A stretch of DNA of 64,000 nucleotides from assembly GCA_903856085.1 (NCBI GenBank), contig CAIOAT010000013.1:231430-295429 (forward strand). Reading direction: 5' to 3'. Both the position numbers and the translations under genes were made by a program. The DNA is from Candidatus Omnitrophota bacterium (lineage in GTDB: Bacteria; Omnitrophota; Omnitrophia; Omnitrophales; Aquincolibacteriaceae). Position 1 is the first letter of the stretch; the number at the start of each line of letters is the position of its first letter. A model generated the notes under the pieces. That model was not told the DNA's origin. It worked only from the letters and a program-made list of their open reading frames with translations, and did not search any database. Of this stretch, positions 3,398 through 59,319 are shown one piece after another.

Positions 3398-3405
3398 ACT
3401 TTCCT

Positions 3406-28366: not shown

Positions 28367-30058
28367 TCAGTCTTTGCGTATCACTTTGGAACCGTCAAAA
28401 ATCTCAAGGGCCTTCGAAACAATGTCCGGCACGTCTTCATCTTTGGTTGGGGTCCTATCCCCCCCCATGTCCTGAATCGTTCCTTCGCGTTCGGTCACGA
28501 CACATTGAACCCGGACCTTCTTGTTAAGCGCCTGCGCAAACGCTTCTTCAATAACCTGTTTGTTCAACTCCTTTTCGAGCGTTTCTTTATGAAAACGGAA
28601 CTCCGACGGAAGCCCCAGCACGATCACAGAACCTTCCACTTCCGCTGGTTCGGCTTCGGCAAGATAAAGACTCAGGGACATGCGCTTCGCCTTGACAAGC
28701 TCAATCACTTGAGGCCATACCCTCTCGACATCATTGAGCGTTAGGCCTTCTTCGGAAGAAGCTCCGACAGCATGAGATCGTAAAGAAACTTCTGCTTGCG
28801 CCACAACTTTGGGAAGCGCTGTGGCTTTCGTAGCGTTGTAAGAAGGAGTTCCCGCTTCTCTAGCGGCCTCTACTGATTTTTGTGTTTTTTTTTCCACAGC
28901 AGGGATCGCGGAGGCACTCTTTTGTCCGGAGGACGCGTACTGAATGAGATCTTCGACGGATTTCAACCCATCCATATAAACGAGTTTGAGAAGTGCAGCC
29001 TCAAGAAGCAGTTTTGGCGAAGCTACGGGTCGTCGCAGCTGGATCTGAAGGTTCTGCAAGATCGAAAGGGCCAAAAGCAACTCACCTTGCTGGAAATCAA
29101 CTGTTAGCTTTCGCAATTTCACGATCATTTCAGCACTGGCTTCGATCAGCACCTCCGCCTTGGACGCAGTCTTCAGGACCAGGAGATGCCTAAAAACCTC
29201 GAACAGGCCCTTCGCGAATTGTGCAAGATCGGCACCTTCTTCGTAAAGTTTTTTCACGAGTCCGAAAATCTCATCCCCCTTTTTCTCACGGATCGCGGCA
29301 AGCACTGAAACATACATCTCCTCCGGCGCAAGTCCGAGAAGGGTCAGAACATCTTCTTCCTTGATCTTCCCCTCAGAAAAACTTGCAAGCTGATCGAGGA
29401 GGCTTTCCGCATCCCGGAGCGCTCCTTCCGTGGCTTTCGCGATCATAAAAAGCGCGTTCTTCTCACATTTCAATTTTTCCTTCCGCGCGATCTCCTCAAG
29501 CTTTCCCACCGCTTCAAGCACAGAGATCCTTTTAAACTGGAGCCTCTGACAGCGCGACAGGATCGTAAGGGGTACTTTGTGGGATTCCGTCGTGGCAAAA
29601 ATGAATTTCACATGCGCCGGCGGTTCTTCGAGGGTCTTTAAGAGCGCGTTAAAGGCATCGCCGGTCAAGGAATGGACTTCGTCAATAATGTAGATCTTGT
29701 AGCGACCCGCAGAGGGTTTGAATTTCACGTTCTCGCGAAGCGTGCGGATCTCCTCAATGCCGCGATTCGATGCGCCGTCAACTTCGAGAACATCCATGGA
29801 ATTCCCCTGCTCGATCTCTTTGCAGGAAATACATTTACCGCAAGGTTTTTCCGTGGGGCCTTCTTTGCAATTCAAGGCCTTTGCGAGAATGCGCGCGGTC
29901 GAAGTCTTCCCCACGCCACGCGGACCCGAGAAAAGGAAGCTTTGCGGAACGCGTTCCTGGCGGATGGCATTCTTCAAGGTCGTGGTGATAGTTTCCTGCC
30001 CCACGATCTCTTCAAATGTCTGCGGTCTGAATTTCCTAGCGTAGATCAGATATTCCAT
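28367..30058 (-). CDS. dnaX: DNA polymerase III subunit gamma/tau
   Basis: AAA+ clamp loader with GPRGVGKTSTARILAKALNC Walker A and a zinc module CGKCISC. Confidence 0.9.
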   Translation of the reverse strand: MEYLIYARKFRPQTFEEIVGQETITTTLKNAIRQERVPQSFLFSGPRGVGKTSTARILAKALNCKEGPTEKPCGKCISCKEIEQGNSMDVLEVDGASNRGIEEIRTLRENVKFKPSAGRYKIYIIDEVHSLTGDAFNALLKTLEEPPAHVKFIFATTESHKVPLTILSRCQRLQFKRISVLEAVGKLEEIARKEKLKCEKNALFMIAKATEGALRDAESLLDQLASFSEGKIKEEDVLTLLGLAPEEMYVSVLAAIREKKGDEIFGLVKKLYEEGADLAQFAKGLFEVFRHLLVLKTASKAEVLIEASAEMIVKLRKLTVDFQQGELLLALSILQNLQIQLRRPVASPKLLLEAALLKLVYMDGLKSVEDLIQYASSGQKSASAIPAVEKKTQKSVEAAREAGTPSYNATKATALPKVVAQAEVSLRSHAVGASSEEGLTLNDVERVWPQVIELVKAKRMSLSLYLAEAEPAEVEGSVIVLGLPSEFRFHKETLEKELNKQVIEEAFAQALNKKVRVQCVVTEREGTIQDMGGDRTPTKDEDVPDIVSKALEIFDGSKVIRKD

Positions 30059-30263
30059 GACTGCCTTGTAGTGCCGTTTTTATTTATTTTTATGGGTTAA
30101 CAATACAGCCCTGCGAGCCCATAGAATCAACAGTAACACAGTGCTAGGAGAAATTAAATGCACTGAAAAGGGGGTTGCGAGGCACCATGATGAGGGAAAA
30201 GAACCTGATTTTCAAGAAGTACTTATCGAGAGAAAAACGCCTTGGAATTTTCTTGAAAAAAAT

Positions 30264-30887
30264 CTATTTTTTAAATTTAAACGTTTTTAAAACATTCTCA
30301 AATATGGGAGCGTAATCTTTGTACTGAGCAGCGACCGTCTCTATCATCAATTCGTAGGAACGGCCATTTCTCATCAAATAAACCCGTTGCCCTCTCAGTA
30401 AAACAGGCGGAGCTTTCATGTTGAACAACGGAAAGGATTCGTATTCATAGACAACAGAAAACGCTTTTTCTCGACCGACCTCTTTGACATCCTTATGAAG
30501 TATTCTGAATTTCGTAAGATTGGAGTCCGTTTTGAGACAGGCCTCCAAAAGATCGGGGGCGGTTTTCCCAACTTCAAGCGGCCGCACGGTAGCATGAATG
30601 AGCGTCGTGAATCCGTTTTCTTTATTAACAGGCCCCTGTAAATAAACCTGGTCATATTTTTCGATGCTTCCCTGGGCTTCGACAGGCTGCCACCCCTTCT
30701 CAGGGTACTCGAACGTAAAGTCTAGTACCGGATTTTTAGACTGAAAATTATGATTTTTCATTGCCGCTCGACTTTGAATGGGTGCCTTCGGTTTGAGAGG
30801 ATGAACGCCGAAAATAATTGTGACCACGAGCATTGTAACACTGAGAACCCCTAAAACCATGGCTCCCTCTTTTATTTTTATTTTCAT
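30264..30887 (-). CDS. Hypothetical exported/membrane-anchored protein
   Basis: N-terminal hydrophobic segment MVLGVLSVTMLVVTIIFGV. No recognisable motif. Last gene of the TPR, pilin-fusion, hypothetical operon. Confidence 0.35.
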   Translation of the reverse strand: MKIKIKEGAMVLGVLSVTMLVVTIIFGVHPLKPKAPIQSRAAMKNHNFQSKNPVLDFTFEYPEKGWQPVEAQGSIEKYDQVYLQGPVNKENGFTTLIHATVRPLEVGKTAPDLLEACLKTDSNLTKFRILHKDVKEVGREKAFSVVYEYESFPLFNMKAPPVLLRGQRVYLMRNGRSYELMIETVAAQYKDYAPIFENVLKTFKFKK

Positions 30888-30907
30888 AGGACCTCGTCAG
30901 ATTTTGA

Positions 30908-32095
30908 TTAATATTCCGGCAAATTATATTGAGCGTACCACTCGCGAACCTTAGCCTTCGCGGAACTTTCAGCCTTTAAAGTGCCGTTATCATTTGCGAA
31001 CGAACTAGCCTGAGAATTGACCCGCGCCCCTAATCCTGCCGAGTCAAACACCTGGTTGGGAGGTTTTTTCAAATCCATCCAGATCTGAGCTCCTGTTGAA
31101 AAAGCGGTATACTCATCATCGATCGTGCCATGCTGCGCATCGCCCGAGCGTGTATCCCCCAATAAAGGATTTGGAACACCATATTGCACCGGAGGAAAGG
31201 GGAAACTCACGTGTTTTTGCCAATCATCGTGCCATATAGCATGTTTGGTCTCATGCGCGAGCACATACGCCGCTGCGTATTGATTGCCTTCCAGCTCGGT
31301 ACTCAGTACGATGGATTTTGAGGTGCCATTCCAAGAAAAAACCCCCCAATTTCCAGCCCCCGGATCACCGAATGAAACGGGCACACTGTTGGTACGAAGC
31401 CAATCAGCAAGCTGAGTCCCTGATCCCATGCCAGAAATATCTAACGTAGTCGTTGACGATGCCAAGGTATCGAGAACTTTCGTAATTTCAGTCGTATAAC
31501 CTGTAAAAGGCGGCAAGGGCGCACTCTCCGGAAGCGTCTGCGTACTATCGGGGATACCCCCACCACCGCCCGAGCCACCACCGCCGGAACCACCACCGGA
31601 ACCACCACCGGAACCGCCGCCGGAACCGCCACCATCACCGCCGCCACCACCATCGGAACCGCCGCCGGAGCCACCACTACTGCCACCACCGCCGCCGTCG
31701 CCCGGCGAATACCCTACAAAACCGTCTTTGTCGATCTTCATTTCTTGAAGCCAGCTTTCTAATAATTCGAGAGGGGTTGCGACCGCCAGAAAATTCTCTG
31801 CGCTGGCGTCGATGATCTTGTAGCGATAGAAAAGCCCTTTGATCAAAAGTCCAAGCGCGGATTCAATCCCGGCTTCATCATCTGCTGCAACAAACTGTCC
31901 GGTCATGCCATGGCGCAGAAGTTCGGCGGCGCGGATAGCCCCGAGATTGTTGGCAGCTTCGGCTTCTTTGGCTTTTTCGGCCTGATGGAAAATATGGGGA
32001 ACCACGAGGGCAGCAAGAACCGCAAGGATCACAACCGCGATTAACACTTCAACCATCGTAAAACCGTTTTTTTTATGCTGTAGGGGATTTTTCAT
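30908..32095 (-). CDS. Type IV pilin-like protein (prepilin N-methylation domain) fused via a Gly/Ser-rich linker to a C-terminal domain carrying an HExxH motif
   Basis: Leader MKNPLQHKKNG|FTMVEVLIAVVILAVLAALVVP is a class III signal peptide. A ~45-aa (GGGS/GGGD)n linker follows. The ~220-aa C-domain contains AHETKHAIWHDDWQKH. Start at MKNPLQ. The ORF-track extension to 32206 is unlikely. Confidence 0.6.
   Translation of the reverse strand: MKNPLQHKKNGFTMVEVLIAVVILAVLAALVVPHIFHQAEKAKEAEAANNLGAIRAAELLRHGMTGQFVAADDEAGIESALGLLIKGLFYRYKIIDASAENFLAVATPLELLESWLQEMKIDKDGFVGYSPGDGGGGGSSGGSGGGSDGGGGGDGGGSGGGSGGGSGGGSGGGGSGGGGGIPDSTQTLPESAPLPPFTGYTTEITKVLDTLASSTTTLDISGMGSGTQLADWLRTNSVPVSFGDPGAGNWGVFSWNGTSKSIVLSTELEGNQYAAAYVLAHETKHAIWHDDWQKHVSFPFPPVQYGVPNPLLGDTRSGDAQHGTIDDEYTAFSTGAQIWMDLKKPPNQVFDSAGLGARVNSQASSFANDNGTLKAESSAKAKVREWYAQYNLPEY
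31558..31702. repeat. Imperfect (GGN/CCN)n trinucleotide tract encoding the poly-Gly/Ser linker of the pilin fusion
   Basis: Plus strand reads CACCACCGCCCGAGCCACCACCGCCGGAACCACCACCGGAACC..., a low-complexity tract prone to slippage. Confidence 0.7.
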
Positions 32096-33416
32096 TTTTA
32101 TTACCCTGCATGACCTCTTCCAATAGTTTTTTGTCCCGGAGTGCGGACTCCAGCTTGGGGTCCAACTCGAGCGCGCGGTTCCATTCCTTGAGAGCATTAT
32201 TGACATCAGGCATCAAAGCATAAGCCAAGCCGGCGTTTGTGTGCGCTTTCGCGTCCAGGTCATTTTTAGAAAGAATTTTCTGAAAGATCTCGAGAGCATC
32301 TTTGGGTTGGTTCATCTTAACGTAAACCAGCCCGATACTGCTGGCAATCGCCAGATTATCCGGATCTTTTTTCGCCAACTGTTCATATTGGGCAATCGCC
32401 TTTTGGTATTCTCCTTTTTGAATAAAAACCTGCGCCAACCCGCGGACCGCTCCCAAAGACGCGGGATCCTTCGCGAGGGCTTCATTAAAAGCCGCTTCGG
32501 CCATCGACCATTCTTTTATATCGAGATATAACAATCCGAAACCGAACGAAATTCGAGGATCTTTAGGATCCCGGGATAAAGCTTCATGATACTGCGTCTC
32601 GGCCTGGGAATAATTCTTCCGCAACCGTAAGATCTCCGCCTTATAAAGATACACCCTCGAGATCGCAGAAGAATTTTTGATCAAGGGCTCAAGAATCATG
32701 TCCCCCTTGTCTAATTCGCCTGCTTGGATATAAGCCGCTGCGGCATTACACGCGGCCACAACATCGTTGTTCTTGTTCACTTCTTCAAAGAACTTCGCCG
32801 CTCCCAAATAATCCCCTGACATATAAAGGCAATAAGCCATATTCCTTTTAACATCCGAGGCATCCGGCTTGAGCGTAATGATTTTTTGGTAATAGGAAAC
32901 GGCGGCTTTGTAATTCTTGGAAGTCTCATAGAGATGCGCCAAATTTAAAAGCGTATCAAGGTTGTTGGGTTTTTCCCCCAGCGCTTTGAGGAAATTCGCC
33001 TCAGCTTTTCTAATTTCACCAACGGAAGCATAAGCACTGCCGAGATTGGCATAAATGAGGGCGTTTTCGGCGCCCGAAACAATGGATTTTTCGAAAGCAT
33101 CCGCGGCATCCTGGAACCGCCCTTCCTTGTAGAGCTCCATGCCTTTGGCAAAAAAGACCTGCCTCCCCCGGACCTCAAGAAGCTCCTCCTTGCCCCCGCG
33201 CCAAATCGTTTGGATATCGCTCTTGGGAATCTTGACTTCCCCTCCCGGAGCTTGGACGGTCACGAACTTTTCGTTCTCTTTAAGGATTTTTGTTTCGATG
33301 GCATTGCCATTCTTGAGTTGGAGGATTTCGCAACGACCATTTTGCAAAAAGGAAAAAAGCAGTACGGCAAAAAGCAAGGCGCTTTTGCGTATAAGCGGGT
33401 TTGTTTTCTTTTTCAA
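32073..33416 (-). CDS. Secreted tetratricopeptide-repeat (TPR) protein
   Basis: Many TPR units of the form A..Y..A..Y.KAL. Probable TTG start giving MKKKTNPLIRKSALLFAVLLFSFLQNG, a signal peptide. The ORF track extends to 33506. Confidence 0.6.
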   Translation of the reverse strand: MKKKTNPLIRKSALLFAVLLFSFLQNGRCEILQLKNGNAIETKILKENEKFVTVQAPGGEVKIPKSDIQTIWRGGKEELLEVRGRQVFFAKGMELYKEGRFQDAADAFEKSIVSGAENALIYANLGSAYASVGEIRKAEANFLKALGEKPNNLDTLLNLAHLYETSKNYKAAVSYYQKIITLKPDASDVKRNMAYCLYMSGDYLGAAKFFEEVNKNNDVVAACNAAAAYIQAGELDKGDMILEPLIKNSSAISRVYLYKAEILRLRKNYSQAETQYHEALSRDPKDPRISFGFGLLYLDIKEWSMAEAAFNEALAKDPASLGAVRGLAQVFIQKGEYQKAIAQYEQLAKKDPDNLAIASSIGLVYVKMNQPKDALEIFQKILSKNDLDAKAHTNAGLAYALMPDVNNALKEWNRALELDPKLESALRDKKLLEEVMQGNKNEKSPTA

Positions 33417-33483
33417 AAAAAACTCCCTTGTTTGGGATGGAACAGACGGTGTGAAGTCCGCGGTCCTGTCCTTCCTTAGAAGA

Positions 33484-33846
33484 TCAAAGGGCCATTCCCA
33501 AAACATTTTTAATTTTCTTGATAATCGCCCCTGCGGGAGTCGCCTTGGAAATAAGTACGCGCCCGTGGATTTTATCCTCGTCGCCTTGGGTCACCATACC
33601 GCTTATATAAACGATGGGGATGTTTTTTGTCTTTGGATTATCCGATAAAACCCGGGCAACATCCCCTCCATCCATGCCGGGCATATTAATATCAAGAAGT
33701 ATCAAATCCGGATGCTCTGTTTTTGCCAGATTCAAACCGTCGCTTCCATTATTTGCGAGCAAGGCAAGAAATCCTGCGGGACGCAGCATGGAGGCAAGGC
33801 TTTCCGCAACTTCTTTCTCATCATCCACAATCAAGATTTTAGCCAT
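33484..33846 (-). CDS. Stand-alone response-regulator receiver domain (CheY-like)
   Basis: 120 aa with ILIVDDE, DLILLDINMPGMDG, and a conserved K near the C-terminus. Confidence 0.8.
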   Translation of the reverse strand: MAKILIVDDEKEVAESLASMLRPAGFLALLANNGSDGLNLAKTEHPDLILLDINMPGMDGGDVARVLSDNPKTKNIPIVYISGMVTQGDEDKIHGRVLISKATPAGAIIKKIKNVLGMAL

Positions 33847-33930
33847 AAAGGTCTCCTTCAGAGCATGCGGCGATCATCGCAGATGAACTTCCTTAGTCCA
33901 TCACGATGTCGCCATTGTTCACAGGAACAA

Positions 33931-34017
33931 CGGAGAGGATAGGATTCGAACCTATGAGGCCCTTGCGAGCCTAACGGTTTTCGAGACCGCCGCATTCGAC
34001 CACTCTGCCACCTCTCC
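33931..34017 (-). tRNA. tRNA-Ser (anticodon CGA)
   Basis: 87 nt. GGAGAGG acceptor stem, long variable arm, anticodon loop CTCGAAA, T-arm GGTTCGAATCC. Confidence 0.8.
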
Positions 34018-34117
34018 TTAACTCGATACCGCGTACGGAGTAACCGCACACTTTACAAAATTAAAAACGAGCTAAAGTCTATGTGTTCCGACCCTTCCGG
34101 TCAAGACACGAGAAAGA

Positions 34118-35890
34118 CTATCGGTCCTCCCTGCAGACCCGATTCCGGCCGTTGTCCTTAGCCCGGTAAAGCGCGGCATCGGCCCTCCGAACCATCGGGT
34201 CGGGAATATTCTCTCCGGGATGGAGCGCGGCCACTCCAAAACTGGCCGTGACAGAGATCGGTTTGCCTTCCCATTCACAGGTCAAAGCTGCGATCTTTTC
34301 CCGGAGACGCTCCGCCACATCCTCCGCGGCCTCTTTCAAATCCGCCCTCCGGAGCATAATAATGAATTCCTCGCCTCCGTAGCGAGCCGCAAAATCGATC
34401 TGGGAGAATGACCGCTTCCTGCGGATATGCGCCTCAAGGGTTTGGGCCACTTTCTTGAGCACCATATCTCCGGCCGGATGACCGTAGGTGTCGTTAATCT
34501 TTTTAAAGTGATCGATATCCAGCAAAATGACCGAAAGGGGTTGTTTCCCATTTTTTGATTCCATCACAATCTGGTTCATGATTAACCGAAAATGTCGGAT
34601 CACATAAAGGTCGGTCAAGCCGTCGCGCGTAGCAAGATGAAAGAGGCGGGATCTTTCGCGCGTCGCGGTAATCTGGACATAGATTGCCGAAAAAATAAAA
34701 AGGCAGAGCATGAGCAAGACGGGATAGACCACGTAGAACCCAAGATGCCATTTCGCAAAAGCCACAAAACAAAACGCGAGCCATCCCAAAGCAAGTAAAA
34801 GTCCCGCCACAAGCGACCCTGCCCCGGGGAGCAGGACAAAGAGGACCAGGGTCAAGCCACCGATTCCAAGAAGACAGAGCATATTCCCCAAAAACGGAAC
34901 CGGGCGCACCCAGTTTCCGGTCAGAGCAGCGTTCAGCACCTGCGCGTAGACACCGATCTTCGGATACGTAAGGCTGAAAGGCGTGATCTTGAGTTCCGAC
35001 GTCCCCGACGCTGTGGGCCCCACCAGGCATATCTTCCCGGCAATCTTTCCCGGATCCATGACTGGCCGCATCCCTTTCTGGATCGCATAAAAACTATGAA
35101 TCAAGTCCGCATAATTGTAACGCACAAAACCACGGTCCCAGACCTCGCTCCAAGGAATCAGGACTTTCCCCCGGTGATCCTCAAAGCTCCCCCATTCCTC
35201 GGCCAGCGGGATGGGTTTTTTCATTTGGTCGAACGCCACGCGCAGCGGCAGAAAAAGGCGCCTTTCTTTTCCTTCCGCGATAAAAGGATCGAACCGTCTC
35301 AGAACGCCATCCGAATCCGACGTAAGAAAGCTGTGCCCCGTCGCCCGCACCTGTTTTTCGAACTCCGGCATCGCGTGAGACCAGTACACTTTCCCTCCGC
35401 CTTGATCCAAAACCACGGGCATCCCATGCAACCAAAATTTTTTCTCTTTTTGCTGTTTCAGATCCACGGGCAAGTAAAAAGAAGTTCCCGTTTTGGAAAG
35501 CGCTTGGGCCAGGTCTGCATCGTCCTTCGGATCGGTCGGTTCTGAGAGATCAAGATCGAACACGATCGCTGCCGCCTTCCATTCGCTCAAAAGGCGTGCT
35601 GTAATCGCGTGATAACTTCGCGGCCACGGCCAAGGACCGATCTCGTCCAAAGATGTTTCCGATATTTCAATGAGAACAATGTCCGGGTGAGCTTTGCCCC
35701 AGGCGGCATGTTTTAGAAAACCGTCGCGGACCAAATCCTCAAATCGATCGAGCCGATGAGTCCCCAAAAGAAAAGCAAATACCCCAATAATGAGAAAATA
35801 AGTTCCGAGCCGGACCCAACCTTGATAATCCCGAGAGCGAATACGGGTGAAAAGTTTTTCGGTCGCTTCAATGGGTTCGTGGGGAGTCAT
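34118..35890 (-). CDS. Membrane sensor diguanylate cyclase (CHASE2-like N-terminal region plus GGDEF)
   Basis: An extracytoplasmic region flanked by TM segments, then a GGDEF domain with RYGGEEF. Confidence 0.75.
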   Translation of the reverse strand: MTPHEPIEATEKLFTRIRSRDYQGWVRLGTYFLIIGVFAFLLGTHRLDRFEDLVRDGFLKHAAWGKAHPDIVLIEISETSLDEIGPWPWPRSYHAITARLLSEWKAAAIVFDLDLSEPTDPKDDADLAQALSKTGTSFYLPVDLKQQKEKKFWLHGMPVVLDQGGGKVYWSHAMPEFEKQVRATGHSFLTSDSDGVLRRFDPFIAEGKERRLFLPLRVAFDQMKKPIPLAEEWGSFEDHRGKVLIPWSEVWDRGFVRYNYADLIHSFYAIQKGMRPVMDPGKIAGKICLVGPTASGTSELKITPFSLTYPKIGVYAQVLNAALTGNWVRPVPFLGNMLCLLGIGGLTLVLFVLLPGAGSLVAGLLLALGWLAFCFVAFAKWHLGFYVVYPVLLMLCLFIFSAIYVQITATRERSRLFHLATRDGLTDLYVIRHFRLIMNQIVMESKNGKQPLSVILLDIDHFKKINDTYGHPAGDMVLKKVAQTLEAHIRRKRSFSQIDFAARYGGEEFIIMLRRADLKEAAEDVAERLREKIAALTCEWEGKPISVTASFGVAALHPGENIPDPMVRRADAALYRAKDNGRNRVCREDR

Positions 35891-49069: not shown

Positions 49070-50110
49070 CTAGGAAGCTTTTCGGCAACACTCCCCCGAT
49101 GATCGGAACGCCAATTTTCCAGCGCCCCAATTCCGTATCCGGCTAAGCATCTTAAAGAATGGAACGGTCCGGAAACAACGCAAGCGAAAATCCCGAAGGT
49201 CCGCCGCGCCAGAGATCAATTGCTGGATCGCCTCCGGCTTATCCCCCAAGTATTTCGGCAGATCCTTTTTTATAAAATCAAGAATCTCGTCAAACAGCGC
49301 GTCCGGCAAAAGCAGGATTTCCCCAAAACCAAAAAGATGCTCCGGAAGTTTTTGGGGGAAATGCTTGGCGAGAAACCTCATCCTGTTCTTCAAAATAAGA
49401 ACTTGCTTCAAAGCATCCATTCTCCGAGGACCTCGAAGCCTGTGATAAACAAAACTGCGCGGCGCAAACACGATCTTATACCCGAGACTCCGCAACCGGT
49501 AATTCATATCAAGATCTTCGGAATACATGTGGAAATCCTCGTCAAAAAAACCGGCTTTCTCTAAGGCTTCCTTTTTATAGAGCGCCGAAACATTCGAAAC
49601 GCTCGTCACTTCTTCGGTTCGGGAATACTGTCCTTGATCCGCTTCTTTGAGGCCCCGGTCCCCCCAGTGGTAATGGGGCAGTTGCTCATGTCCGGCGCTT
49701 TGGATCCTTCCGTCAAAAAAAAGAACTTTGCTGCCAACGGCGCCAATGCCCTCGGAGGACTGGGCGGCACGAACGAGCTCCACCAACCAGTGCCGGTCTA
49801 CTTTCGTATCATTATTGAGCAACGCGACATATTCCCCCCGCGCTTCCCGAATTCCAAGATTATTGGCGCTACAGTAGTTATTAAGATCGTTCGCAAGAAC
49901 CCGAACCTCCGGATAGCTCCGATTGATATATTTCACCGACCCATCCGTCGAACCATTATCCACCACAAGAACTTCGCGTTTGTCCCTTGGATAATCCAGA
50001 CCCCGCAAAGAATCCAGGCATTCCTTGATAAGACGCTTTCCATTTCGGTGAACAATGATGACCGTGACGAATGGAAACGAGCCTTCCTGCTTTGGATCAT
50101 TCTTTTGCAT
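49070..50110 (-). CDS. Family 2 glycosyltransferase
   Basis: VTVIIVHRNG and VLVVDNGSTDGS motifs. Confidence 0.75.
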   Translation of the reverse strand: MQKNDPKQEGSFPFVTVIIVHRNGKRLIKECLDSLRGLDYPRDKREVLVVDNGSTDGSVKYINRSYPEVRVLANDLNNYCSANNLGIREARGEYVALLNNDTKVDRHWLVELVRAAQSSEGIGAVGSKVLFFDGRIQSAGHEQLPHYHWGDRGLKEADQGQYSRTEEVTSVSNVSALYKKEALEKAGFFDEDFHMYSEDLDMNYRLRSLGYKIVFAPRSFVYHRLRGPRRMDALKQVLILKNRMRFLAKHFPQKLPEHLFGFGEILLLPDALFDEILDFIKKDLPKYLGDKPEAIQQLISGAADLRDFRLRCFRTVPFFKMLSRIRNWGAGKLAFRSSGECCRKAS

Positions 50111-51242
50111 GGGACGATCTCCCTGGGCCTGTCGCATTAAGACTGAGACTGATTTCACTTTTTATCTTTTCTATAAAAACCCCGGTACCAAACCGGCGCG
50201 CTGAAATTTGGCAAGCTTCACGATATTTCGCGGGATCGTGAGCCAGTTCTTCTCCCAATTTCAAAATGGCGTTGCGGAGTTTATTCTCATCAATAGCATC
50301 GATCAGAATACCGGTTTGACCGTGAACGACCGTCTCCCGGTAACCTCCCTCGTCCGGGGCGATGACGGGTTTTCCGGAGGCCATCGCCTCCACCGCATTC
50401 ATCCCGAAATCTTCATCCTGTGAGGTGGTGATCAAACCTTTGCAATGCGCGTACAATTCTACCAGTTCTTCATGAGAGACCCAGCTTTTGATTTCGACGT
50501 TATTCGGTTTTATTTTTTCGCAAGAAGCCGCATACTCGAGAAAATGGTCTGACTGCTCATAGCTTCCGACAATGACGAGCCGCTCCCCGGGAAGCCCGGC
50601 AAAAGCCTTCATCTGCAGTTCGATCCTCTTGTGTTTTATAAGCCGGTTCACTGAAAGCCAATAACCCTTCGACGGGGCCTCATGGAATTTTGATATCTCA
50701 ATGGGAGGATGGATCACGGTGGCGTCCCTCTGAAGAAACTGTTTCACCCGCTTCTTTGTATTTTCAGAATTGCAAACTACGCGTCCCACGGCAACTACAT
50801 ATTTCCGGTTGAGATACCGGTTGACCATGACCCAGAGATCGAAAAACAGCCGGCACCAGGAAGGAACCATGCTTTCTCTCACGTAGGGATACAGGTCCCA
50901 GATCTCCCGGATCGGAGAGTGGACATACCAGAGATTAGGCCGGTTTTTGACCGCTCCCGACATAGCCCAGTCACCGGCAATAATAAAAAAATCATACTTT
51001 GCTTTTAAATCGAGGCGCCGGAACTTCCCCTGGGCGATCTGCTGTCTCCAGGGAGGATTGAGCGGGACTTTTCCAATCGAGAAAACCCTCGGAAGCACAT
51101 CGGAAAAACCCATGTGGCGGATCTTGATGGGATCAATATTGGTCGTATAAATATCGGCCCCCAATTCCCGGGCCAACGTCAGGGACACAATCTCCGCCCC
51201 TCCGATATTGTCGATAAAGTTATGGAAGATCGCAATCCTCAT
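50097..51242 (-). CDS. Family 4 (GT-B, group 1) glycosyltransferase
   Basis: EDFGMNAVEAMASGKPVIA E-x7-E motif region. A GGAG SD lies before the MRIAIFHN start. Confidence 0.8.
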   Translation of the reverse strand: MRIAIFHNFIDNIGGAEIVSLTLARELGADIYTTNIDPIKIRHMGFSDVLPRVFSIGKVPLNPPWRQQIAQGKFRRLDLKAKYDFFIIAGDWAMSGAVKNRPNLWYVHSPIREIWDLYPYVRESMVPSWCRLFFDLWVMVNRYLNRKYVVAVGRVVCNSENTKKRVKQFLQRDATVIHPPIEISKFHEAPSKGYWLSVNRLIKHKRIELQMKAFAGLPGERLVIVGSYEQSDHFLEYAASCEKIKPNNVEIKSWVSHEELVELYAHCKGLITTSQDEDFGMNAVEAMASGKPVIAPDEGGYRETVVHGQTGILIDAIDENKLRNAILKLGEELAHDPAKYREACQISARRFGTGVFIEKIKSEISLSLNATGPGRSSHAKE

Positions 51243-51247
51243 GGAGT

Positions 51248-53002
51248 TTATTTCTCCTTCATCAGATCGTGGGCCAAACGTAAGTTCGCCGCGGCTTCCT
51301 GATAACGGGGATTGATCTTTAAAGCCTCCTGAAACTGCATAGCGGCCTGCTGATACTCGCCCATCAGTCCATAGGTCATCCCAAGATTGTTCCATCCTTC
51401 TTCGAACCAGGGGGCCATTTTGACGGCGTTTTGTCCATATAGAAGCGCATTCTTATAATCCCCCGTAAGGGCATAGGCATACCCCAGGTTGCTCTGTGCC
51501 TGATAATTTTTCGGATCCAACTCGACCGCTTGGCGGCAAAAATAAATCCCCTCCTGATATTTTTTCATTTCTCCATAAAGCGACCCCAGGTTGTTATAGA
51601 GCTGGGCCAAAGGTTCCCTGAGCCCCTGATGGAACTTTAAAGCCATTTGATAAGCCTCAATCGCCTTCTGCGGCTGACCCCTTCTCTGGTACTCAACCCC
51701 CAGGTTGACATACGGCCGTGACTTCCGGGGTGATTGACTGACGGCATCCTGCCAAAACACGAGCGCGTTGGTCCAAACTTCGTTTCGCCGGTAGGTCAAC
51801 GAAGAGAAAATAAGAATGATTCCGATCATACTCAGGAGAAAAAGTCTGTAATTTTTTATCAAATAATAAAGGCCCGCGCAAAACGCGATTAAAAAACCTA
51901 TGGAAGGAAGATAAAGCCGATGCTCAAAAATGGCATCCTTAAGCGGTACAAAGCTCGAAGTGACAGACAAAGTGAGGAAAAACCAAAGCACGCCGAACCC
52001 GACCAGCGGAAAGCGACGGATCGATCGAAACGCCAGAAGAAAAATCGCAAGAAGCACGAGAGCGCTTGCAAGAGTCGAGCCGTCCAACAACCCGTGAGAC
52101 CAGGCAAAATCATAATCAACGTTTTGCCGCACGGGAAGGAACAACAACCCGATGTACTTGAGGATCACACGGAATTCGGTTAAAAGGTAGGTCCCGCTGG
52201 TAATGCCAATCTCTGCATGCTGCGAAAACACCCCTCGAAGATTGATAGAGAGACAAAAAAGAATCAGAACCATTAATAGAAGAACGATCCCGCTATAAAT
52301 CCACGGTTTCTTCCAGAACGACCCAGGCTCTTTCAGAAAGCTCAGAGGGGCCGGCTCCTTGAGAAAGATCCATTCGATCAAAACCAGTGCCGCTGGCAGT
52401 GTAAAAACAATTTCTTTGGTGAAAGCTCCCAAGATCGCTGCCACAACTGAAAGCATGAAAAAAGCAGTCCCTTGAAGAGGACGTTCGGAGCTCATTCTCC
52501 CCTTCAGATAAAGACAGAGTGAGAGCACGTAGAAAAGAGTGGCCAGACATTCGAACCGTTGAGTGATATAGGTCACTGCTTCTGTCTCGATCGGATGGGA
52601 TACAAAAAGCCATCCGACAAGGAGAGCTATCGCATAGTTGTGCTTTGCGATGTTTTCTTCCCGCAGACGCGGCGTCTTAAGGAGCAGCAATAAAAACCAG
52701 CCCACAGAAAGAGCGGTAAAAATGTGAATGGCCATATTGACGGCATGATAGCCGGCGACATCATTTCCATGGACGTGATAGTTCAGAGCAAAGGAAGAGA
52801 ACGCGACGAAACGTTTGCGGTAACTCAGATCCTGCCAAAGCGCCGGATCCCCAAGCTGTCTAATAGCAGGATTTTTCAGGATGAATTTTTCATCGTCGAA
52901 CAGAAAGGGCCCTCTCAAGGTGTTCGAGTAGAGAAGAAAACCCCACACACACAGAGCCACAAGCGCAGCAAAGAACATCATCTGTTTTTTTGAAATACTC
53001 AA
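51248..53002 (-). CDS. TMTC/PMT_2 (DUF1736, GT39-like) polytopic membrane protein with C-terminal TPR repeats; putative glycosyltransferase
   Basis: About 11 N-terminal TM helices with a GYHAVNMAIHIFTAL motif, then four or more TPR units. Confidence 0.5.
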   Translation of the reverse strand: MSISKKQMMFFAALVALCVWGFLLYSNTLRGPFLFDDEKFILKNPAIRQLGDPALWQDLSYRKRFVAFSSFALNYHVHGNDVAGYHAVNMAIHIFTALSVGWFLLLLLKTPRLREENIAKHNYAIALLVGWLFVSHPIETEAVTYITQRFECLATLFYVLSLCLYLKGRMSSERPLQGTAFFMLSVVAAILGAFTKEIVFTLPAALVLIEWIFLKEPAPLSFLKEPGSFWKKPWIYSGIVLLLMVLILFCLSINLRGVFSQHAEIGITSGTYLLTEFRVILKYIGLLFLPVRQNVDYDFAWSHGLLDGSTLASALVLLAIFLLAFRSIRRFPLVGFGVLWFFLTLSVTSSFVPLKDAIFEHRLYLPSIGFLIAFCAGLYYLIKNYRLFLLSMIGIILIFSSLTYRRNEVWTNALVFWQDAVSQSPRKSRPYVNLGVEYQRRGQPQKAIEAYQMALKFHQGLREPLAQLYNNLGSLYGEMKKYQEGIYFCRQAVELDPKNYQAQSNLGYAYALTGDYKNALLYGQNAVKMAPWFEEGWNNLGMTYGLMGEYQQAAMQFQEALKINPRYQEAAANLRLAHDLMKEK

Positions 53003-53113
53003 AATTTACGGCCCTTTCGTTTGATGCCAAGTATCCCTTGAGAATGCCGGCGAAATCTCAGGTTAAAAACTTAGCCGAGAGGCAGACCCTTTGCACGCCT
53101 CATCATAATACGA

Positions 53114-53938
53114 TCATCCGTGAATGCCTAAAAAATCCAAGAACCTGCTCCACTCACAGTGGACCATGTCCCTGGCATTTTGCCAAAGGGAGGGGTTGGG
53201 AATCGTTCGAAACGGTTCGAAGCAAACCGTACGGAAACAGCTTCCCTGTTTTTTGGCCATAAGCACCAAAAGCCTCTCGATCGCGTGGGCCAACGTCCCA
53301 TTGCGCCGGATCGCTTTACCTCCCGGAAAATCCTCAAAGGTAAGCCCGAGCCCAAATAACTGGGCGAGCGCCCTCGGGCGAAACCAGAACATAGAACCGG
53401 CCGGAAACCTAAGCTGGCTTTTTTCCGGGAGCGGTAATTCTAATCGCGCGGCGAGCGCCACGCAACTATCCCAGTCCGAAGGCAATGGATCTTCCAATCC
53501 CGCTTTAAGGGGCGCAATCGCTTCAGGATAAACCAGCCCGAGAGTTTTGTCTTCTTCGAACATCCGCAGGATCGAATCGATAATCTCCGGAGATCCTGCA
53601 AGGTTTCTCATTAAATATTCACCCCAACCCTTAAGCCATAACCTGTGGGGACTTTTTTTTGTGTGCAGCTTGAGAACCAGGTCATAAGACGGATAAACAT
53701 CCCCAAACATGCAGACGAACGGGGCAATGTCATAGCCCCTGTTCGGAACCACCCGGAGCGTGATCTTTTTACCCGGGAACATTTCATCCAGAAGATTTTT
53801 CACCCACTCGCTTTTCTCCACCGGCACGGAGACATAAAGATCGAACTCAAAAGAGAGCTTCCCGAGAAGCTTGAGGATCGCTTCCGTCTCCTCCCTGTAA
53901 AATAAATGCGCCACTACTGCCATCTTGGAAACATCCAT
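53114..53938 (-). CDS. Rhamnan synthesis protein F (RgpF)-like glycosyltransferase
   Basis: VVAHLFYREE N-terminus and overall RgpF-like composition. Confidence 0.45.
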   Translation of the reverse strand: MDVSKMAVVAHLFYREETEAILKLLGKLSFEFDLYVSVPVEKSEWVKNLLDEMFPGKKITLRVVPNRGYDIAPFVCMFGDVYPSYDLVLKLHTKKSPHRLWLKGWGEYLMRNLAGSPEIIDSILRMFEEDKTLGLVYPEAIAPLKAGLEDPLPSDWDSCVALAARLELPLPEKSQLRFPAGSMFWFRPRALAQLFGLGLTFEDFPGGKAIRRNGTLAHAIERLLVLMAKKQGSCFRTVCFEPFRTIPNPSLWQNARDMVHCEWSRFLDFLGIHG

Positions 53939-53969
53939 TAAAACCTCCGCACTGTCTGAGCCGGTGCTT

Positions 53970-55046
53970 TCATTTCGATTCTTTTGGAAGCAAATTAATG
54001 ACAGTGGCCTTTATTTTTTCAGCGGCCAAAGCATTACCCGCAATATTCCAGTGGGTATCCCTTGGCTTGTATAAGGCCGCCCCACCCGCTTTAAACGCAT
54101 CCAAAAGATCCATGTAAGGAATCCCGAGTCCTGAAAGATATTGCCCGAGCACCCTGTTGGGAACCTCCCACTGCATTTTCCCGACGGGAATCTCTCTTGG
54201 AAATCTCTCCGAGAGCTGCTGCTGAAGCTCGGGGTCGACCTGCATCTGGTCGGGGATCAAGACAAAAGCCAGAGCCACACCGTTCTTCCGGCAGATAGAG
54301 TCCATTTCTTTGATTTTCAACAAGACGTTTCGCATTCTCTTTCGCAAGACATCGTTGTCTTTTCGAAACAAAACACTTCGAATCTTTTCAATTTCAAAGA
54401 ACTTTTCCTTTTTGAAGGTCGGGACATAATCGCGATAAGCACGGAAAGCCGCCAGCGATCTTTCCACGGATCTAAAAAAGCCATGGCAGTATTTCGCAAA
54501 CTGGTAAATATAAAATCGCTCGAACCATTGAAGCGGCGGGTGAAAATCGATGAAATCGTTCCCGATGAAGAAGGACACTAGCACGATATCCGGGTGAAAG
54601 AACAACGCCTCATGGCGAAGCATGTATAGATATTCCTCGGGACCGATACCAGGAATCCCCATATTAAGAACGTCCACATCAAGCCCGTCTGACTGCAAGC
54701 TCCGCTCCAGCAGCGTCAGATAATTGTATTCACGGGGGACGATTCCCCAGGCGAAAGAATCACCGAGTGCGACAACGCGAACTCTGTGATTTTTCTTAAT
54801 AGAAAAGTCCGCATCCTTAAAACCAAAATTGTTCAGCTTAACATTACCCCAGACTTGTCCAGGATATCTGTTTACTGACAGGCGATCTGAATCGACAAGG
54901 AGACTGATCGGAAATAAATGCTGGGCAATCCGCAAGCCGCCTTCCAATATCAGCAAACTCACAATGATACCCATGCAGAGCGCAATACATCGCTTGCGCC
55001 AATCGTGGGATCGCAGAGAGGGGCCCCGGCCGATTTCAGACTTCAC
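53970..55046 (-). CDS. SGNH/GDSL hydrolase-fold protein of the AlgJ/AlgX/DltD type; putative polysaccharide O-acyltransferase
   Basis: Block I VVALGDSFAWG and a C-terminal RDTHWN (DxxH). N-terminal membrane anchor. Confidence 0.65.
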   Translation of the reverse strand: MKSEIGRGPSLRSHDWRKRCIALCMGIIVSLLILEGGLRIAQHLFPISLLVDSDRLSVNRYPGQVWGNVKLNNFGFKDADFSIKKNHRVRVVALGDSFAWGIVPREYNYLTLLERSLQSDGLDVDVLNMGIPGIGPEEYLYMLRHEALFFHPDIVLVSFFIGNDFIDFHPPLQWFERFYIYQFAKYCHGFFRSVERSLAAFRAYRDYVPTFKKEKFFEIEKIRSVLFRKDNDVLRKRMRNVLLKIKEMDSICRKNGVALAFVLIPDQMQVDPELQQQLSERFPREIPVGKMQWEVPNRVLGQYLSGLGIPYMDLLDAFKAGGAALYKPRDTHWNIAGNALAAEKIKATVINLLPKESK

Positions 55047-55207
55047 GGATCATCCACGCCCCCAAAACATCGTAACTACTTCCTTCACTAAAATCCTGCT
55101 CCTGCATAAGACACTTCACCTCATCCAACCTGCTATCTGAAATTTTTTCTTGATACTACTCATGTCCATTGCGCAAAACTTAAGAAATGCAGGACGCCAA
55201 CGTCTTT

Positions 55208-57043
55208 TTACACCCGTAATCTCTGGCTTGTCCACAAATTGAAGAACAGGCCTTTCTTATAGATCAACTCCCGCAGAGTGCCCGACTCAAGGATTCTACC
55301 TTGATCAAGATAGACGATTTTATCGGCTCTTCTGATTGTAGAAAGCCTGTGGGCAATAAGGATCAGCGTTTTCTCACCTCGCGTCTGCAAAATAAAGTTG
55401 TGGACCCAGGCTTCCGTCCCAGAATCAAGAGCGCTCGTGGCTTCATCCATGATCAAGATCTCCGGGTCCTTGATAAGCGCCCGTGCGATCGAAAGCCTTT
55501 GCCGCTCACCCCCCGAAAGACGGGCACCCCTTTCGCCGACAAGGGTCTCATATTTCTGCGGCATCTTTTTGACAAAATCATGGATGCGAACCCTGATGCC
55601 AAGGTACCTTAAACGTTCCTCATGAACATCCGAAGAGGCACCATAAACAATGTTGTTACGGATCGTATCGTTAAAGAGAATCACTTCCTGACTCACGAAC
55701 GCCATACGCTGTCGCAGCGAAGCGACGTCATACCCCCGGATGTCATGACCATCCACTAAAATCGTCCCGGGAGAACAATCATAAAATCTTAAAAGCAAGT
55801 TCACGAGCGTACTTTTGCCCGAACCCGAAGGTCCCACAATGGCAACAATCGATTTTTTTTCTACGGAAAAATTGAGTTTTTCCAGAACCCAAGGTTCCTT
55901 TTCTCCGTATCGAAAAGAAAGGTCCTTGAACTGTATCACTTTCTTGAGGCCTGTGAATTTCTGTGAGCCACTCACCACCAGAGTGGTCCCTTCATAGTGA
56001 AGGACTTGCTCGATATCGCGCAATGCAGAAGCGGCGCCCGCAGACCCCATTTTAAACTTACCGAACGCGGCGAACCCCGGAACAACCCGCATCGCCAGAT
56101 AAAAGAAAACAAAGGCTTGCGACGCGTCCAGAGTGTGGTCGATCCGCATCACGAGCGCCAATCCAAAAGCAACACATAGGATCCCGGTCATCGCTCCCAG
56201 ATCCTCGACCGGCTCCGCGAGGCTGCTCAACCGTTGCGTTTTAAATGCTTGCGCGATCTCTTGTTCACTTGCACGCGAAAATTTTTCTATCTCTTCCTGC
56301 TCCTTGGCAAAACTTCGTATGACCGGCATGCAGTAAAGCATATTGAAGATCTTTTCATGAAGATTCTTGGCCACACGATCGTGCTCCAGCCAGGCGGCAC
56401 GAATCCTCAGGATGATCCCATGCGTCACAAATTGCGTCAGGGGAACCGCGATGATCGCAACACAAGTCAGCTTCCAGGAGGTTTTGAGCATGAGACTGAG
56501 ATAGACGACGAGCAATAAGAATTGCGAGAGGAACCCCTGAAAGAGATCGAACTGGGATTCGATCATGCCGGTCGCTTTCGTAAGAACAGTGTGCAAAAAC
56601 GCGGTCGTGTTCTTATCGTAAAAACTTTTGCTGTAACCCAGACATTTCTTGACCAGCAATTGGCGAACATTTGCCGTGGCAAGTCGCGCCTGGGTCTGGC
56701 TGCACAAAGAGGCTAAATAAAGACAGGCGTTTTTAAGAATGACAATAATATAGAACCAGAATGCGGCAAGCGCGAAAAGCTTATTGGAGGTATTAAAAAA
56801 ATTTGGAAAGCGCCTGACGAAAAAATGAACGCCTGCCATATCCACCATATGGCTGAAATCCCCTTGGATGATCCCGTGTGTCAGAGGAAACAACAAGTTG
56901 ACGGAGTAGAGGGCCGAAAGACTGAAGCAGACAGAGAGAACGACAGACAATGCCAGAAACCACATATTAACCTGGCTCATTTTCAAAAAAGCAAAAAGTT
57001 TTTTTGCGTTTGAGAAGATATCGTTTCTTTTCTCAGAACTCAT
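55208..57043 (-). CDS. ABC exporter, fused permease/ATPase (MsbA-like)
   Basis: A six-TM domain plus an NBD with GPSGSGKST, LSGGERQRLSIARAL and ILIMDEATSALD. Confidence 0.85.
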   Translation of the reverse strand: MSSEKRNDIFSNAKKLFAFLKMSQVNMWFLALSVVLSVCFSLSALYSVNLLFPLTHGIIQGDFSHMVDMAGVHFFVRRFPNFFNTSNKLFALAAFWFYIIVILKNACLYLASLCSQTQARLATANVRQLLVKKCLGYSKSFYDKNTTAFLHTVLTKATGMIESQFDLFQGFLSQFLLLVVYLSLMLKTSWKLTCVAIIAVPLTQFVTHGIILRIRAAWLEHDRVAKNLHEKIFNMLYCMPVIRSFAKEQEEIEKFSRASEQEIAQAFKTQRLSSLAEPVEDLGAMTGILCVAFGLALVMRIDHTLDASQAFVFFYLAMRVVPGFAAFGKFKMGSAGAASALRDIEQVLHYEGTTLVVSGSQKFTGLKKVIQFKDLSFRYGEKEPWVLEKLNFSVEKKSIVAIVGPSGSGKSTLVNLLLRFYDCSPGTILVDGHDIRGYDVASLRQRMAFVSQEVILFNDTIRNNIVYGASSDVHEERLRYLGIRVRIHDFVKKMPQKYETLVGERGARLSGGERQRLSIARALIKDPEILIMDEATSALDSGTEAWVHNFILQTRGEKTLILIAHRLSTIRRADKIVYLDQGRILESGTLRELIYKKGLFFNLWTSQRLRV

Positions 57044-57218
57044 GCGGGGTAGCTCCGATAATTTAACGCAACGCTTGTGGGATATGATAACTGCAAGGAG
57101 GGATTATGAAAAGGAAAGAACGCAGGAAATACCGACACTTGCCCGCTTGTGGCCAGGAGATAATGAGTCGGAGGTTTTGGAAAATCCTTCGAAAGGACCT
57201 GCGGAAAATAAAACCGGA

Positions 57219-58067
57219 CTAAGCCTGCCCCCAAGACTCTGGGAGCTTAGAAAATCTAGCGCTTAACGCATCGTAAGTATCTTTTAGCTTCGCTTTGAGT
57301 TTTTTATCAATTTCATTCGAAAAATCAAAATCGTGCGTCACATTAACTTTGCGTTCTAATCGCTCTTCAGGAAGTGCCACTGCGGCAACTTCAAGAAAAT
57401 CGGTGATCTGATTGATGGCCTTTTGTTTGTTCCGCATAAGATCTTCGTAGAAAAGAAACAATAAATCCTCCGGCCTGAAATGCTCTTGCAGCTTTTGGAC
57501 GGTAACATGATATGAAGACTTTTCGATAATCATATCGGAATACGCTAGTTCAACAAGCTCTTCTCTCGTAACATCACGAATATCCGTATTTTGCATTTCA
57601 AAGAAATAACGCATCGCTGACTTAGCCCGATCGACCGGATCTCTCATTATAAAAAGTATTTTTTTATTTTGGCACACTCTTTTTATATTTTCAAATCCCG
57701 CGTCAGGCAGGAGGGCATATTCCGGTGAAAAATCAGCCGCATATTTCTTCCCACTATGAGAAAACAACTTTATATACCACTGATCATTGACAGGTGATAA
57801 TAACTCGTGGATGACTTTATTAACAGGCTTGCCAGACGATACATTTGAAAAATAGCGTTCTAATGCCGAACGCTTTTCTTTCAGGATCCGTTCCAGTTCA
57901 TTTACTTTTCTTCTCGTCAGCAGAATGCTGTCGCAATACAACGTGTTGAAATAATGGACCTCTTTCACGCCTGAAAAACCGATTTCCGGATGATCTTTTA
58001 ACTGCGCGTACAACCAGGTGGTACCTGCCTTTTGTGCACCCACACATAAAAATAAATTTTTTATCAT
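57219..58067 (-). CDS. PAPS-dependent sulfotransferase family protein
   Basis: 5'-PSB motif GAQKAGTTWL. Start at MIKNLF. Confidence 0.65.
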   Translation of the reverse strand: MIKNLFLCVGAQKAGTTWLYAQLKDHPEIGFSGVKEVHYFNTLYCDSILLTRRKVNELERILKEKRSALERYFSNVSSGKPVNKVIHELLSPVNDQWYIKLFSHSGKKYAADFSPEYALLPDAGFENIKRVCQNKKILFIMRDPVDRAKSAMRYFFEMQNTDIRDVTREELVELAYSDMIIEKSSYHVTVQKLQEHFRPEDLLFLFYEDLMRNKQKAINQITDFLEVAAVALPEERLERKVNVTHDFDFSNEIDKKLKAKLKDTYDALSARFSKLPESWGQA

Positions 58068-58264
58068 AATGCGCTTTTCCATCCCCTGAATAATTAACAA
58101 AAATAGCCCGCCTGTTTTCCGTACTCAAGCGCGCTCAGAGCGTCAAACGTTCCATGAAGCTTTCTGTGATTCTAATTCATTTCTACGCGTTCGAGGATCA
58201 TTCTTTTCTTTCGGCCATCCGTAAAATCTTGTGACTGTCTCGGTCGGCAGAACATCCCCACGTC

Positions 58265-59146: not shown

Positions 59147-59319
59147 TTCGAAATATTAGAGAATACCCCTTCTGATCATTTTATAATTCCCTGAGCAATC
59201 CACTCCGGGGTTGACAAGCCCTGAAACGCCGGAGTTATTATACTGCTCCCCATTTCGTTAAAGTTCAAACAGTTAAAACTTGAAATAGATGAAATCATAA
59301 GAATCAACGCCTGCAAATA

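Follow-up and report, generated by a model that had tools for sequence, protein, structure and literature searches.

A zincin-like module tethered to a predicted type IV prepilin, and its conserved partner genes, in a Candidatus Omnitrophota bacterium

In the 64,000-nt stretch analysed here (hereafter the window; positions 231,430 to 295,429 of contig CAIOAT010000013.1, Candidatus Omnitrophota bacterium, assembly GCA_903856085.1), a gene on the minus strand (30908-32095) encodes a 395-aa prepilin that continues, beyond a Gly/Ser-rich linker, into a domain with the predicted fold of a zincin metallopeptidase. These parts correspond to those by which a modular pilin has been defined (Raynaud et al., 2021), namely a pilin module (residues 12-131), a linker (132-180) and an additional module from outside pilus biology (181-395), and we read the product as a modular type IV pilin or pseudopilin that presents a zincin-fold peptidase module, a reading to which we assign a probability of roughly 0.55. 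The gene is the second of a cassette of three, all on the minus strand. It is preceded by a gene for a tetratricopeptide repeat (TPR) protein (32073-33416), with which it overlaps by 23 nt, and is followed after 20 nt by a gene (30264-30887) for a membrane-anchored protein of 207 aa. The three frames and the overlap are as drawn in a first-pass annotation of the window, and the arrangement, which that annotation had called a three-gene module, is conserved in every readable related locus.

The N-terminus of the protein, MKNPLQHKKNG followed by FTMVEVLIAVVILAVLAALVVP, has the features of a class III prepilin signal: a hydrophilic leader of only 11 residues (32063-32095, minus strand) that ends in the cleavage-site Gly, and a mature part beginning FTMVEV, which opens with the usual stretch of about 20 hydrophobic residues and has Phe at position +1 and Glu at position +5. 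This N-terminus scores above the cut-offs of both Pfam N_methyl (33.1 bits against 21.2, E 3.7e-8) and TIGR02532 (29.1 bits against 16.3, E 5.7e-7), and in an alignment of 13 sequences the residues at -1 (G11), +1 (F12) and +5 (E16) are invariant. A six-frame search of the 64 kb found no other prepilin motif. The mature pilin module (31703-32062, minus strand; 120 residues) was modelled with AlphaFold2 (AF2) from the same 13-sequence alignment as a long helix (residues 14-65) packed on a head with four strands (at 90-127), with a predicted local distance difference test score (pLDDT) of 62-83, and hence has the lollipop form of type IV pilins, an alpha-1 helix of about 50 residues on an antiparallel beta-sheet head. 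Foldseek returned Thermus PilA4 as its best match (6xxd; E 1.7e-3, TM-target 0.67), with meningococcal PilV (5v23) and Pseudomonas PilE (4noa) among further matches, and the nearest relatives outside the family are small pilins with Pfam Pilin_GH (PF16734). The first-pass annotation had proposed both the class III leader and the pilin-like stalk, and both proposals hold, Glu +5 and the context of the prepilin peptidase (PilD) site included. Within the family the pilin module is better conserved than the cargo module, with a mean pairwise identity of 55% against 32% and the higher value in 54 of 55 pairs; 23 of its positions, namely G11, F12, E16 and 20 others, are invariant. This degree of conservation argues for specific contacts rather than for a passive anchor.

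The linker (aa 132-180; 31556-31702, minus strand) comprises 49 residues, solely Gly, Ser and Asp, and residues 130-196 have pLDDT below 50 in the AF2 model, as expected of a disordered segment. A Gly/Ser run of 30-57 residues occurs in all 13 full-length or N-terminal homologs. Because the run is kept in every homolog while its length differs, we conclude that a long flexible tether is under selection, but not its exact length. The Gly/Ser linker reported in the first-pass annotation is thus a conserved feature of the family. The same annotation had also described its DNA as a slippage-prone tract, a suggestion that gains little from the repeat itself, an imperfect (GGN GGN GGN TCC)n tract with a period of 12, 8.7 copies and 73% matches, in which no perfect tandem duplication exceeds 2 x 12 nt. 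The length variation expected from such a tract is seen between orthologs, but not at strain level, where the identical 395-aa protein was called on 13 contigs from several metagenomes, samples and assemblers (a count by exact-match look-up only).

The C-terminal module, or C-domain (30911-31555, minus strand; 215 aa, residues 181-395), was modelled alone from 19 sequences with a pLDDT of 87.1 and a predicted template modelling score (pTM) of 0.86. In the model, the chain passes from two helices to a sheet of three strands, then to the helix with HExxH and, after a loop, to a helix headed by D-D-E-Y, two further helices and a tail ending in Tyr, so that the defining element of the zincin fold, an HExxH helix after a mixed beta-sheet with its edge strand along the cleft, is present. 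Its fold matches include M3 and M32 peptidases, botulinum light chains, Wss1, BlaR1, CapP, lethal factor and VgrG2b, as well as SPRTN, proabylysin, IrrE/PprI, M48, BepA and Acel_2062, and the Foldseek matches, to SPRTN, M48, selecase, jannalysin and MATCAP, point the same way. Together, these matches identify the fold as that of a zincin, yet not one close to any solved family. The sequence contains AHETKHAIWHDD, with the HExxH at 31241-31255, inside an extended metal-site motif, H281-E-T-K-H285-A-I-W288-H-D-D291 (31223-31255, minus strand), which lies within a predicted helix spanning residues 272-297. Among 19 aligned C-domains, H281, E282, H285, W288 and D291 are invariant, as are G306, R316, E328 and Y329. 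The last two belong to a D326-D-E328-Y329 motif (31109-31120, minus strand) at the start of helix 325-343; this D-x-E-Y pattern, in which the Glu and Tyr are invariant and the Asp nearly so, follows the HExxH by 34-48 residues in all members. The protein ends in L-P-E-Y-COOH (30911-30922, minus strand), and the last residue is Tyr in every complete member (Phe once). The HExxH-bearing, zincin-like domain of the first-pass annotation is accordingly borne out in its conservation and its predicted fold; what the modelling returned was not a non-catalytic pilin-head or adhesin fold with unconserved HExxH residues.

The same alignment speaks to the class of zincin concerned. The SprT-like, Wss1 and SPRTN proteins are recognised by HExxHxxxxxH, with the third His six residues after the second, and the first-pass annotation had read this spacing in AHETKHAIWHDDWQKH. 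Of the His residues in that string, H289 and H295 vary, the position six after H285 is the invariant D291, and Pfam SprT-like is matched, below threshold, in only 2 of 19 members; the SprT-like assignment was therefore rejected. In the metzincins and Asp-zincins, HExxHxxGxxH/D, the Gly allows the chain to turn and so places the third ligand at the metal, and metzincins have in addition a Met-turn. Membership in either group was likewise rejected, because the Gly position is occupied by the invariant W288 and the AF2 helix runs continuously to residue 297. The spacing of D291 is nonetheless that of the Asp-zincins, despite the Trp in the Gly position (comparison in PMC3890501). In zincins the third metal ligand, a Glu, His or Asp, comes from the C-terminal subdomain or from the extended motif. 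Two invariant candidates are available here, D291 (in HExxHxxWxxD) and, at the head of helix 325-343, E328 or the nearly invariant D326; Y329 of the D-x-E-Y motif is a candidate catalytic Tyr.

No Pfam or NCBIfam model matches the C-domain at threshold, and searches of PDB sequences with the single sequence and with a profile returned nothing significant, the best matches being an mGluR7 construct (E 0.4) and IrrE (E 0.91). The sub-threshold Pfam matches of the 19 members are nearly all to metallopeptidase families: DUF6782 (4 members), SprT-like (2), Zn_peptidase_2, eCIS_core, YgjP-like and M91. The window C-domain does not match DUF6782 (PF20573; gathering threshold 27 bits) at E-values up to 5, and the best of the four aligned members that do match has E 0.0086. 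The link to this family runs through P0022, a stand-alone relative of 190 aa that the family profile recovered at E 6.8e-11, which aligns with that profile at an hhalign probability of 98.9% and passes the DUF6782 gathering score (29 against 27 bits). P0022 shares LAHExxH..W, SIDQEY and the LPEY tail with the family, in which DUF6782 is matched below threshold by five members, of which the C-domain alignment includes four, and it differs from the pilin-fused branch in that the latter has an extra loop with the invariant Gly306 and Arg316. Since P0022 alone bridges the threshold, the relation to DUF6782 is transitive and distant and does not amount to curated membership. On sequence comparison, the C-domain is best described as a divergent, pilin-fused branch related to DUF6782, itself an uncharacterised family of putative metallopeptidases. 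P0022 has no pilin module and is encoded directly downstream of a 916-aa DUF87 (HerA/VirB4-like) ATPase, among several unannotated genes (L082, 5843-6415; also L083 and L084), a quite different context of use for the domain.

The family is small and visible only to exhaustive searching: a HMMER scan across 1.84 billion representatives recovered 21 cluster representatives (11 of them with E <1e-10), whereas word-indexed homology searches returned nothing with the C-domain alone and three proteins with the family profile. A metagenome scan with the full-length sequence was swamped by the linker pattern DGGGGGDG and gave one irrelevant pilin, and the exact window sequence is absent from a cluster table of 15 billion proteins. 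The same four-part architecture recurs in 12 independent homologs with C-domain identities of 25-71%, a recurrence beyond what chance would give; P0001, P0002, P0004, P0009, P0011, P0008, P0012, P0015, P0019 and P0021 are full-length members with the same module order. In the last five of these, from P0008 on, and in P0018 (loci L086, L087 and L094), a Cys-containing, beta-rich insert of about 110-130 residues, with the motif NDGW...G(W/F)...YCY and no Pfam match, separates the zincin module from the Gly/Ser linker and defines a sub-branch. Two further copies are broken inside the linker: P0023 (L091, 10001-10445), whose contig ends there, bears the NCBI annotation 'type II secretion system GspH family protein, partial [Candidatus Omnitrophica bacterium]', and P0024 is frameshifted there. 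Because the GGN-rich tract breaks assemblies and gene calls, database copies are often cut short and resemble ordinary small pilins.

The order TPR gene (440-485 aa), pilin-zincin gene and gene for a protein of about 200 aa is found in every readable related locus (the window, L081, L085, L086, L087, L088, L091, L094 and the P0002 contig), and tblastn confirmed orthology for all three proteins. TPR orthologs (38-63% identity) lie directly upstream of every readable pilin-zincin homolog, with a conserved overlap of 17-26 nt, and orthologs of the third gene (33-62% identity) lie downstream of the pilin gene in L081, L085, L087, L088 and L094. In the window, the TPR gene has a TTG start, which gives 447 aa and is the one called in other assemblies; the open frame runs to 33506. 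Its product has an N-terminal signal peptide, a small beta domain and then TPR repeats (Pfam TPR_2 1.3e-39 and others). The beta domain, at residues ~30-75 (ILQLKNGNAIETKILKE...VKIPKSDIQTIWRG), is conserved in the L081 ortholog and matches the N-terminal domain of Leptospira LA_0442/LA_0875 (NCBIfam) below threshold (35.4 bits, cut-off 43). The TPR partner is a secreted, periplasmic protein, and the gene overlap suggests translational coupling with the pilin-zincin. The third protein, an exported hypothetical in the first-pass annotation, does carry an N-terminal membrane anchor, but it is not a plain hypothetical, given sub-threshold matches that make it PsbP-like: 14.5 bits for Pfam PsbP in the window copy (cut-off 23.5), and among five orthologs PsbP matches in three (best 9.9e-4) and PsbP_2 matches in two (best 1.4e-6). 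In four loci, the identities of the zincin gene and the third gene move together (60/62, 40/43, 46/37.5 and ~30/33%), a hint, but only a hint, of co-evolution of the pair.

In L081, L085 and L088, as in the window, the cassette is followed by dnaX and recR, with DnaX 75-84% identical to that of the window, and this synteny indicates that the cassette is ancestral at the dnaX position in the clade; beyond the clade, DnaX finds its best matches in Omnitrophota metagenome-assembled genomes, at about 42% identity. In the window, dnaX (28367-30058) is separated from the third gene by 205 nt. On the other side, a tRNA-Ser(CGA) gene (33931-34017, minus strand; ARAGORN, Rfam tRNA 59.7 bits), present also upstream of the cassette in L081 and L088 and found in L001, is the upstream landmark of the variable interval in which the cassette lies. 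In L001, nucleotide homology ends at this tRNA and restarts exactly at the start of dnaX, and two other genes (855-2768), one for an unrelated TPR protein of 359 aa and one for a product of 179 aa, stand in place of the response regulator-TPR-pilin-PsbP block of the window (30058-33931). The tRNA-Ser(CGA)-dnaX interval is hence a replaceable segment. An integrative island, as a tRNA-Ser beside a variable segment might indicate, was considered and, for the cassette itself, rejected: the cassette is syntenic beside dnaX in genomes at 75-84% DnaX identity, and only in L001 is the interval replaced.

In the mechanism we propose, the protein would be exported by Sec and cleaved after Gly11 by a prepilin peptidase whose gene would lie outside the region read, elsewhere in the genome, and its alpha-1 helix would then hold the cleaved protein in the inner membrane until the pilin module enters a type IV filament, either a pilus or a pseudopilus of the kind built by type II secretion systems (T2SS), probably at low abundance. 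The peptidase module, predicted to be Zn-dependent, would thereby be presented outside the cytoplasmic membrane on a tether of up to ~17 nm (49 residues x ~0.35 nm). At its active site, H281 and H285 would bind the metal and E282 would act as general base, with the third ligand provided either by E328/D326, in a gluzincin or aspzincin-like arrangement, or by D291, with the spacing of the Asp-zincins. The carboxylate of the C-terminal Tyr may lie within the active site, in the way seen in Acel_2062, and the tail may thus be self-capping. The TPR and PsbP-like partners would most likely dock, chaperone or restrain the enzyme.

Several observations weigh against this reading. Prepilin peptidase, pilus ATPase, platform protein and secretin genes are absent from the 64-kb window, which otherwise holds housekeeping, cyclic di-GMP and polysaccharide genes, and pilus machinery is equally absent from the 10 kb beyond either end of it, as read from sister assemblies; nor does a second prepilin gene lie near any ortholog. 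The only filament genes nearby belong to L081, the locus of a 70% identical ortholog, where a Tad-type set (1-4473; a T2SSE ATPase and two T2SSF genes, with a ParA/CpaE-like gene and DUF192) lies 5-10 kb upstream of the cassette. Nothing comparable is found in the window, and their relevance is doubtful because Tad systems normally use Flp-type pilins. The window C-domain reaches the threshold of no curated family, its third metal ligand has two candidates, E328/D326 and D291, and L001, the closest relative by DnaX (92% identity), does without the cassette, which must hence be dispensable. Catalysis, filament display and the biological role of the family we infer from sequence, and no member has been characterised experimentally.

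Part of this evidence would suit the main rival reading, an envelope-maintenance protease of the periplasm, in which the prepilin N-terminus would do no more than anchor the protein in the inner membrane or dock it at the base of a T2SS or type IV pilus, without filament display, and the tether would let the enzyme reach across the periplasm and, with its TPR partner, process envelope proteins much as BepA does. The housekeeping setting (dnaX-recR-nusA-infB), the seemingly vertical inheritance of the cassette at one position, the lack of pilus genes nearby, the coupling that the TPR/pilin overlap suggests and the partial matches of the TPR protein to BepA (its TPR region, NF052400, 2.1e-9), PilW, Tgl and LapB all fit such a role. 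Nevertheless, these TPR matches are to generic repeats and fall far below cut-offs, a pure anchor would not need a complete pilin head with 23 invariant positions, more conserved than the catalytic module itself, and the absence of the cassette from L001 is unexpected for a core envelope function, so that we consider this alternative somewhat unlikely. It is quite unlikely, in our estimate, that the HExxH module is not a peptidase at all, whether it performs other metal chemistry, akin to alpha-ketoglutarate/Fe oxygenases, or is a non-catalytic binding module on a zincin scaffold. HExxH oxygenases of that kind are documented in pathways for ribosomally made peptides that are modified after translation (RiPPs; PMC12636437), some mini-zincins have no detectable activity (PMC3890501), and peptidase activity has been shown for no member of the present family. 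Yet the use of alpha-ketoglutarate and Fe(II) outside the cytoplasm would be implausible for a module that is exported, as its class III signal and the signal or anchor of both partners imply, the cassette holds no RiPP precursor or biosynthetic genes, and the invariance of the catalytic Glu argues against a purely structural scaffold. That the fusion is a chimera of a pilin gene and an HExxH gene, created by assembly or gene calling across the GGN repeat, we regard as extremely improbable: the G-rich tract does disturb assemblies, as P0023 and P0024 attest, but the exact protein on contigs from several samples and assemblers shows that the fusion is not an assembly artefact, the 12 homologs come from four assembly sources (JGI, ENA, NCBI and Logan) with one frame, one module order and differing linker sequences, and no stand-alone version of either half was found beside a TPR gene.

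A bolder extension of the filament-display reading makes the protein a 'protease on a rope', a weapon or foraging tool of host-dependent Omnitrophota whose retractable type IV filament would carry an active zincin, on its tether of about 17 nm, to the surface of prey or host cells or to polymeric substrates, with the PsbP-like protein as cognate inhibitor or immunity protein and the TPR protein as loading chaperone; the fast-evolving cargo may then track its targets, and the PsbP-like protein may co-vary with it. We hold this to be unlikely, but if true it would be the first case of a protease that is displayed on a pilus in enzymatically active form and has its own immunity or chaperone pair. 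A reading as a defence system was dropped, since the PADLOC models matched neither the pilin-zincin nor the PsbP-like protein, and their matches to the TPR and receiver-domain proteins were generic.

Upstream of the cassette, a stand-alone receiver-domain response regulator (33484-33846, minus strand; Pfam Response_reg 4.8e-18) lies 67 nt from the TPR gene and, together with a CHASE2-GGDEF diguanylate cyclase (34118-35890), directly precedes the cassette in the window. The response regulator is missing from this position in L081, L088 and L091 and is not a conserved part of the cassette, and in L091 a dCache-PAS histidine kinase occupies the place of the cyclase/receiver pair; the upstream signalling genes are hence a possible, but not a conserved, input to the cassette. 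An Rfam scan of 29900-34300 found the tRNA and no riboswitch or leader RNA, and promoter and terminator scans were too near background to define a transcription unit. Elsewhere in the window, the minus strand carries a large surface-polysaccharide or lipid modification cluster (49070-62966), with GT2 and GT4 glycosyltransferases, a TPR protein, RgpF-like and AlgX/SGNH proteins, an ABC exporter, two sulfotransferases, an MBOAT gene and a 750-aa AMP-binding enzyme; in the sister assembly L092 this cluster has other upstream neighbours.

Type IV filaments are usually seen as adhesive, motile or DNA-binding fibres. Should the module prove both active and filament-displayed, proteolysis at a distance would join their functions, and a tethered periplasmic protease would instead represent a new solution for envelope quality control. 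The family offers a clean candidate for testing enzymatic pilin cargo, with a cargo domain that is small and confidently modelled, an evident catalytic motif for mutation, a long tether kept by selection and two dedicated partner genes, in an organism that belongs to a candidate phylum with almost unknown cell biology. Pilins that carry enzymes are so far known only as predictions from domain databases, in a survey that lists more than 1,200 modular pilins with 264 architectures, among them fusions to S74 and M26 modules with predicted peptidase activity (Raynaud et al., 2021; PMC8179133). The first-pass annotation had taken the present fusion for an undescribed architecture, a claim that is overstated in view of these published fusions; the modular pilin design has been described already, and what is new here is the zincin module itself and its conserved partner genes. 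The authors of the survey held that many more modular pilins must exist, with modules that lack database signatures (PMC8179133). Because its zincin has no signature at threshold, the present family is invisible to a domain-based survey of this kind, and as a branch captured by no curated profile it escapes metallopeptidase surveys as well.

The pilin-zincin shares with known modular pilins, such as Streptococcus sanguinis PilB with its vWA module and PilC with its lectin module (PMC8179133), the class III signal, the small pilin carrier and the C-terminal module attached through a linker. It differs from them in its cargo, an unclassified zincin, in its tether, 30-57 residues of near-pure Gly/Ser where theirs is a 'short linker', and in its genomic setting, outside a pilus operon and with two dedicated, conserved partner genes. 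The type IVb minor pilins CofB and TcpB, thought to sit at the filament tip, also combine a pilin module, a flexible linker and extra C-terminal domains (PMC8179133), but these domains are beta-repeat or beta-sandwich adaptors rather than an HExxH fold and the genes lie inside pilus operons, and neither protein appeared as a sequence or fold match in the present searches. On the side of the cargo, the mini-zincins and minigluzincins, namely Acel_2062/DUF1025 (3e11), proabylysin (4jiu), projannalysin (4jix) and selecase (4qhf), together with SprT, Wss1 and SPRTN, have in common with it a three-stranded sheet, an HExxH helix and a ligand helix, and all are fold matches. Acel_2062 has an HEXXHXXGXXD motif with the His-to-Asp spacing of the window zincin, and it too ends in a Tyr, the carboxylate of which makes contact with the first motif His (PMC3890501). 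In the cell envelope, finally, the association of a zincin with TPR repeats recalls BepA, a fold match of the C-domain whose TPR model is partly matched by the TPR partner. BepA, a beta-barrel assembly-enhancing protease, is an M48 zincin fused to a TPR domain, whereas here the TPR protein and the zincin are separate polypeptides and it is the zincin that carries the pilin module and the tether. The window zincin matches no M48 model in Pfam or NCBIfam and is therefore not an M48 peptidase, and the resemblance to BepA would be one of functional analogy only.

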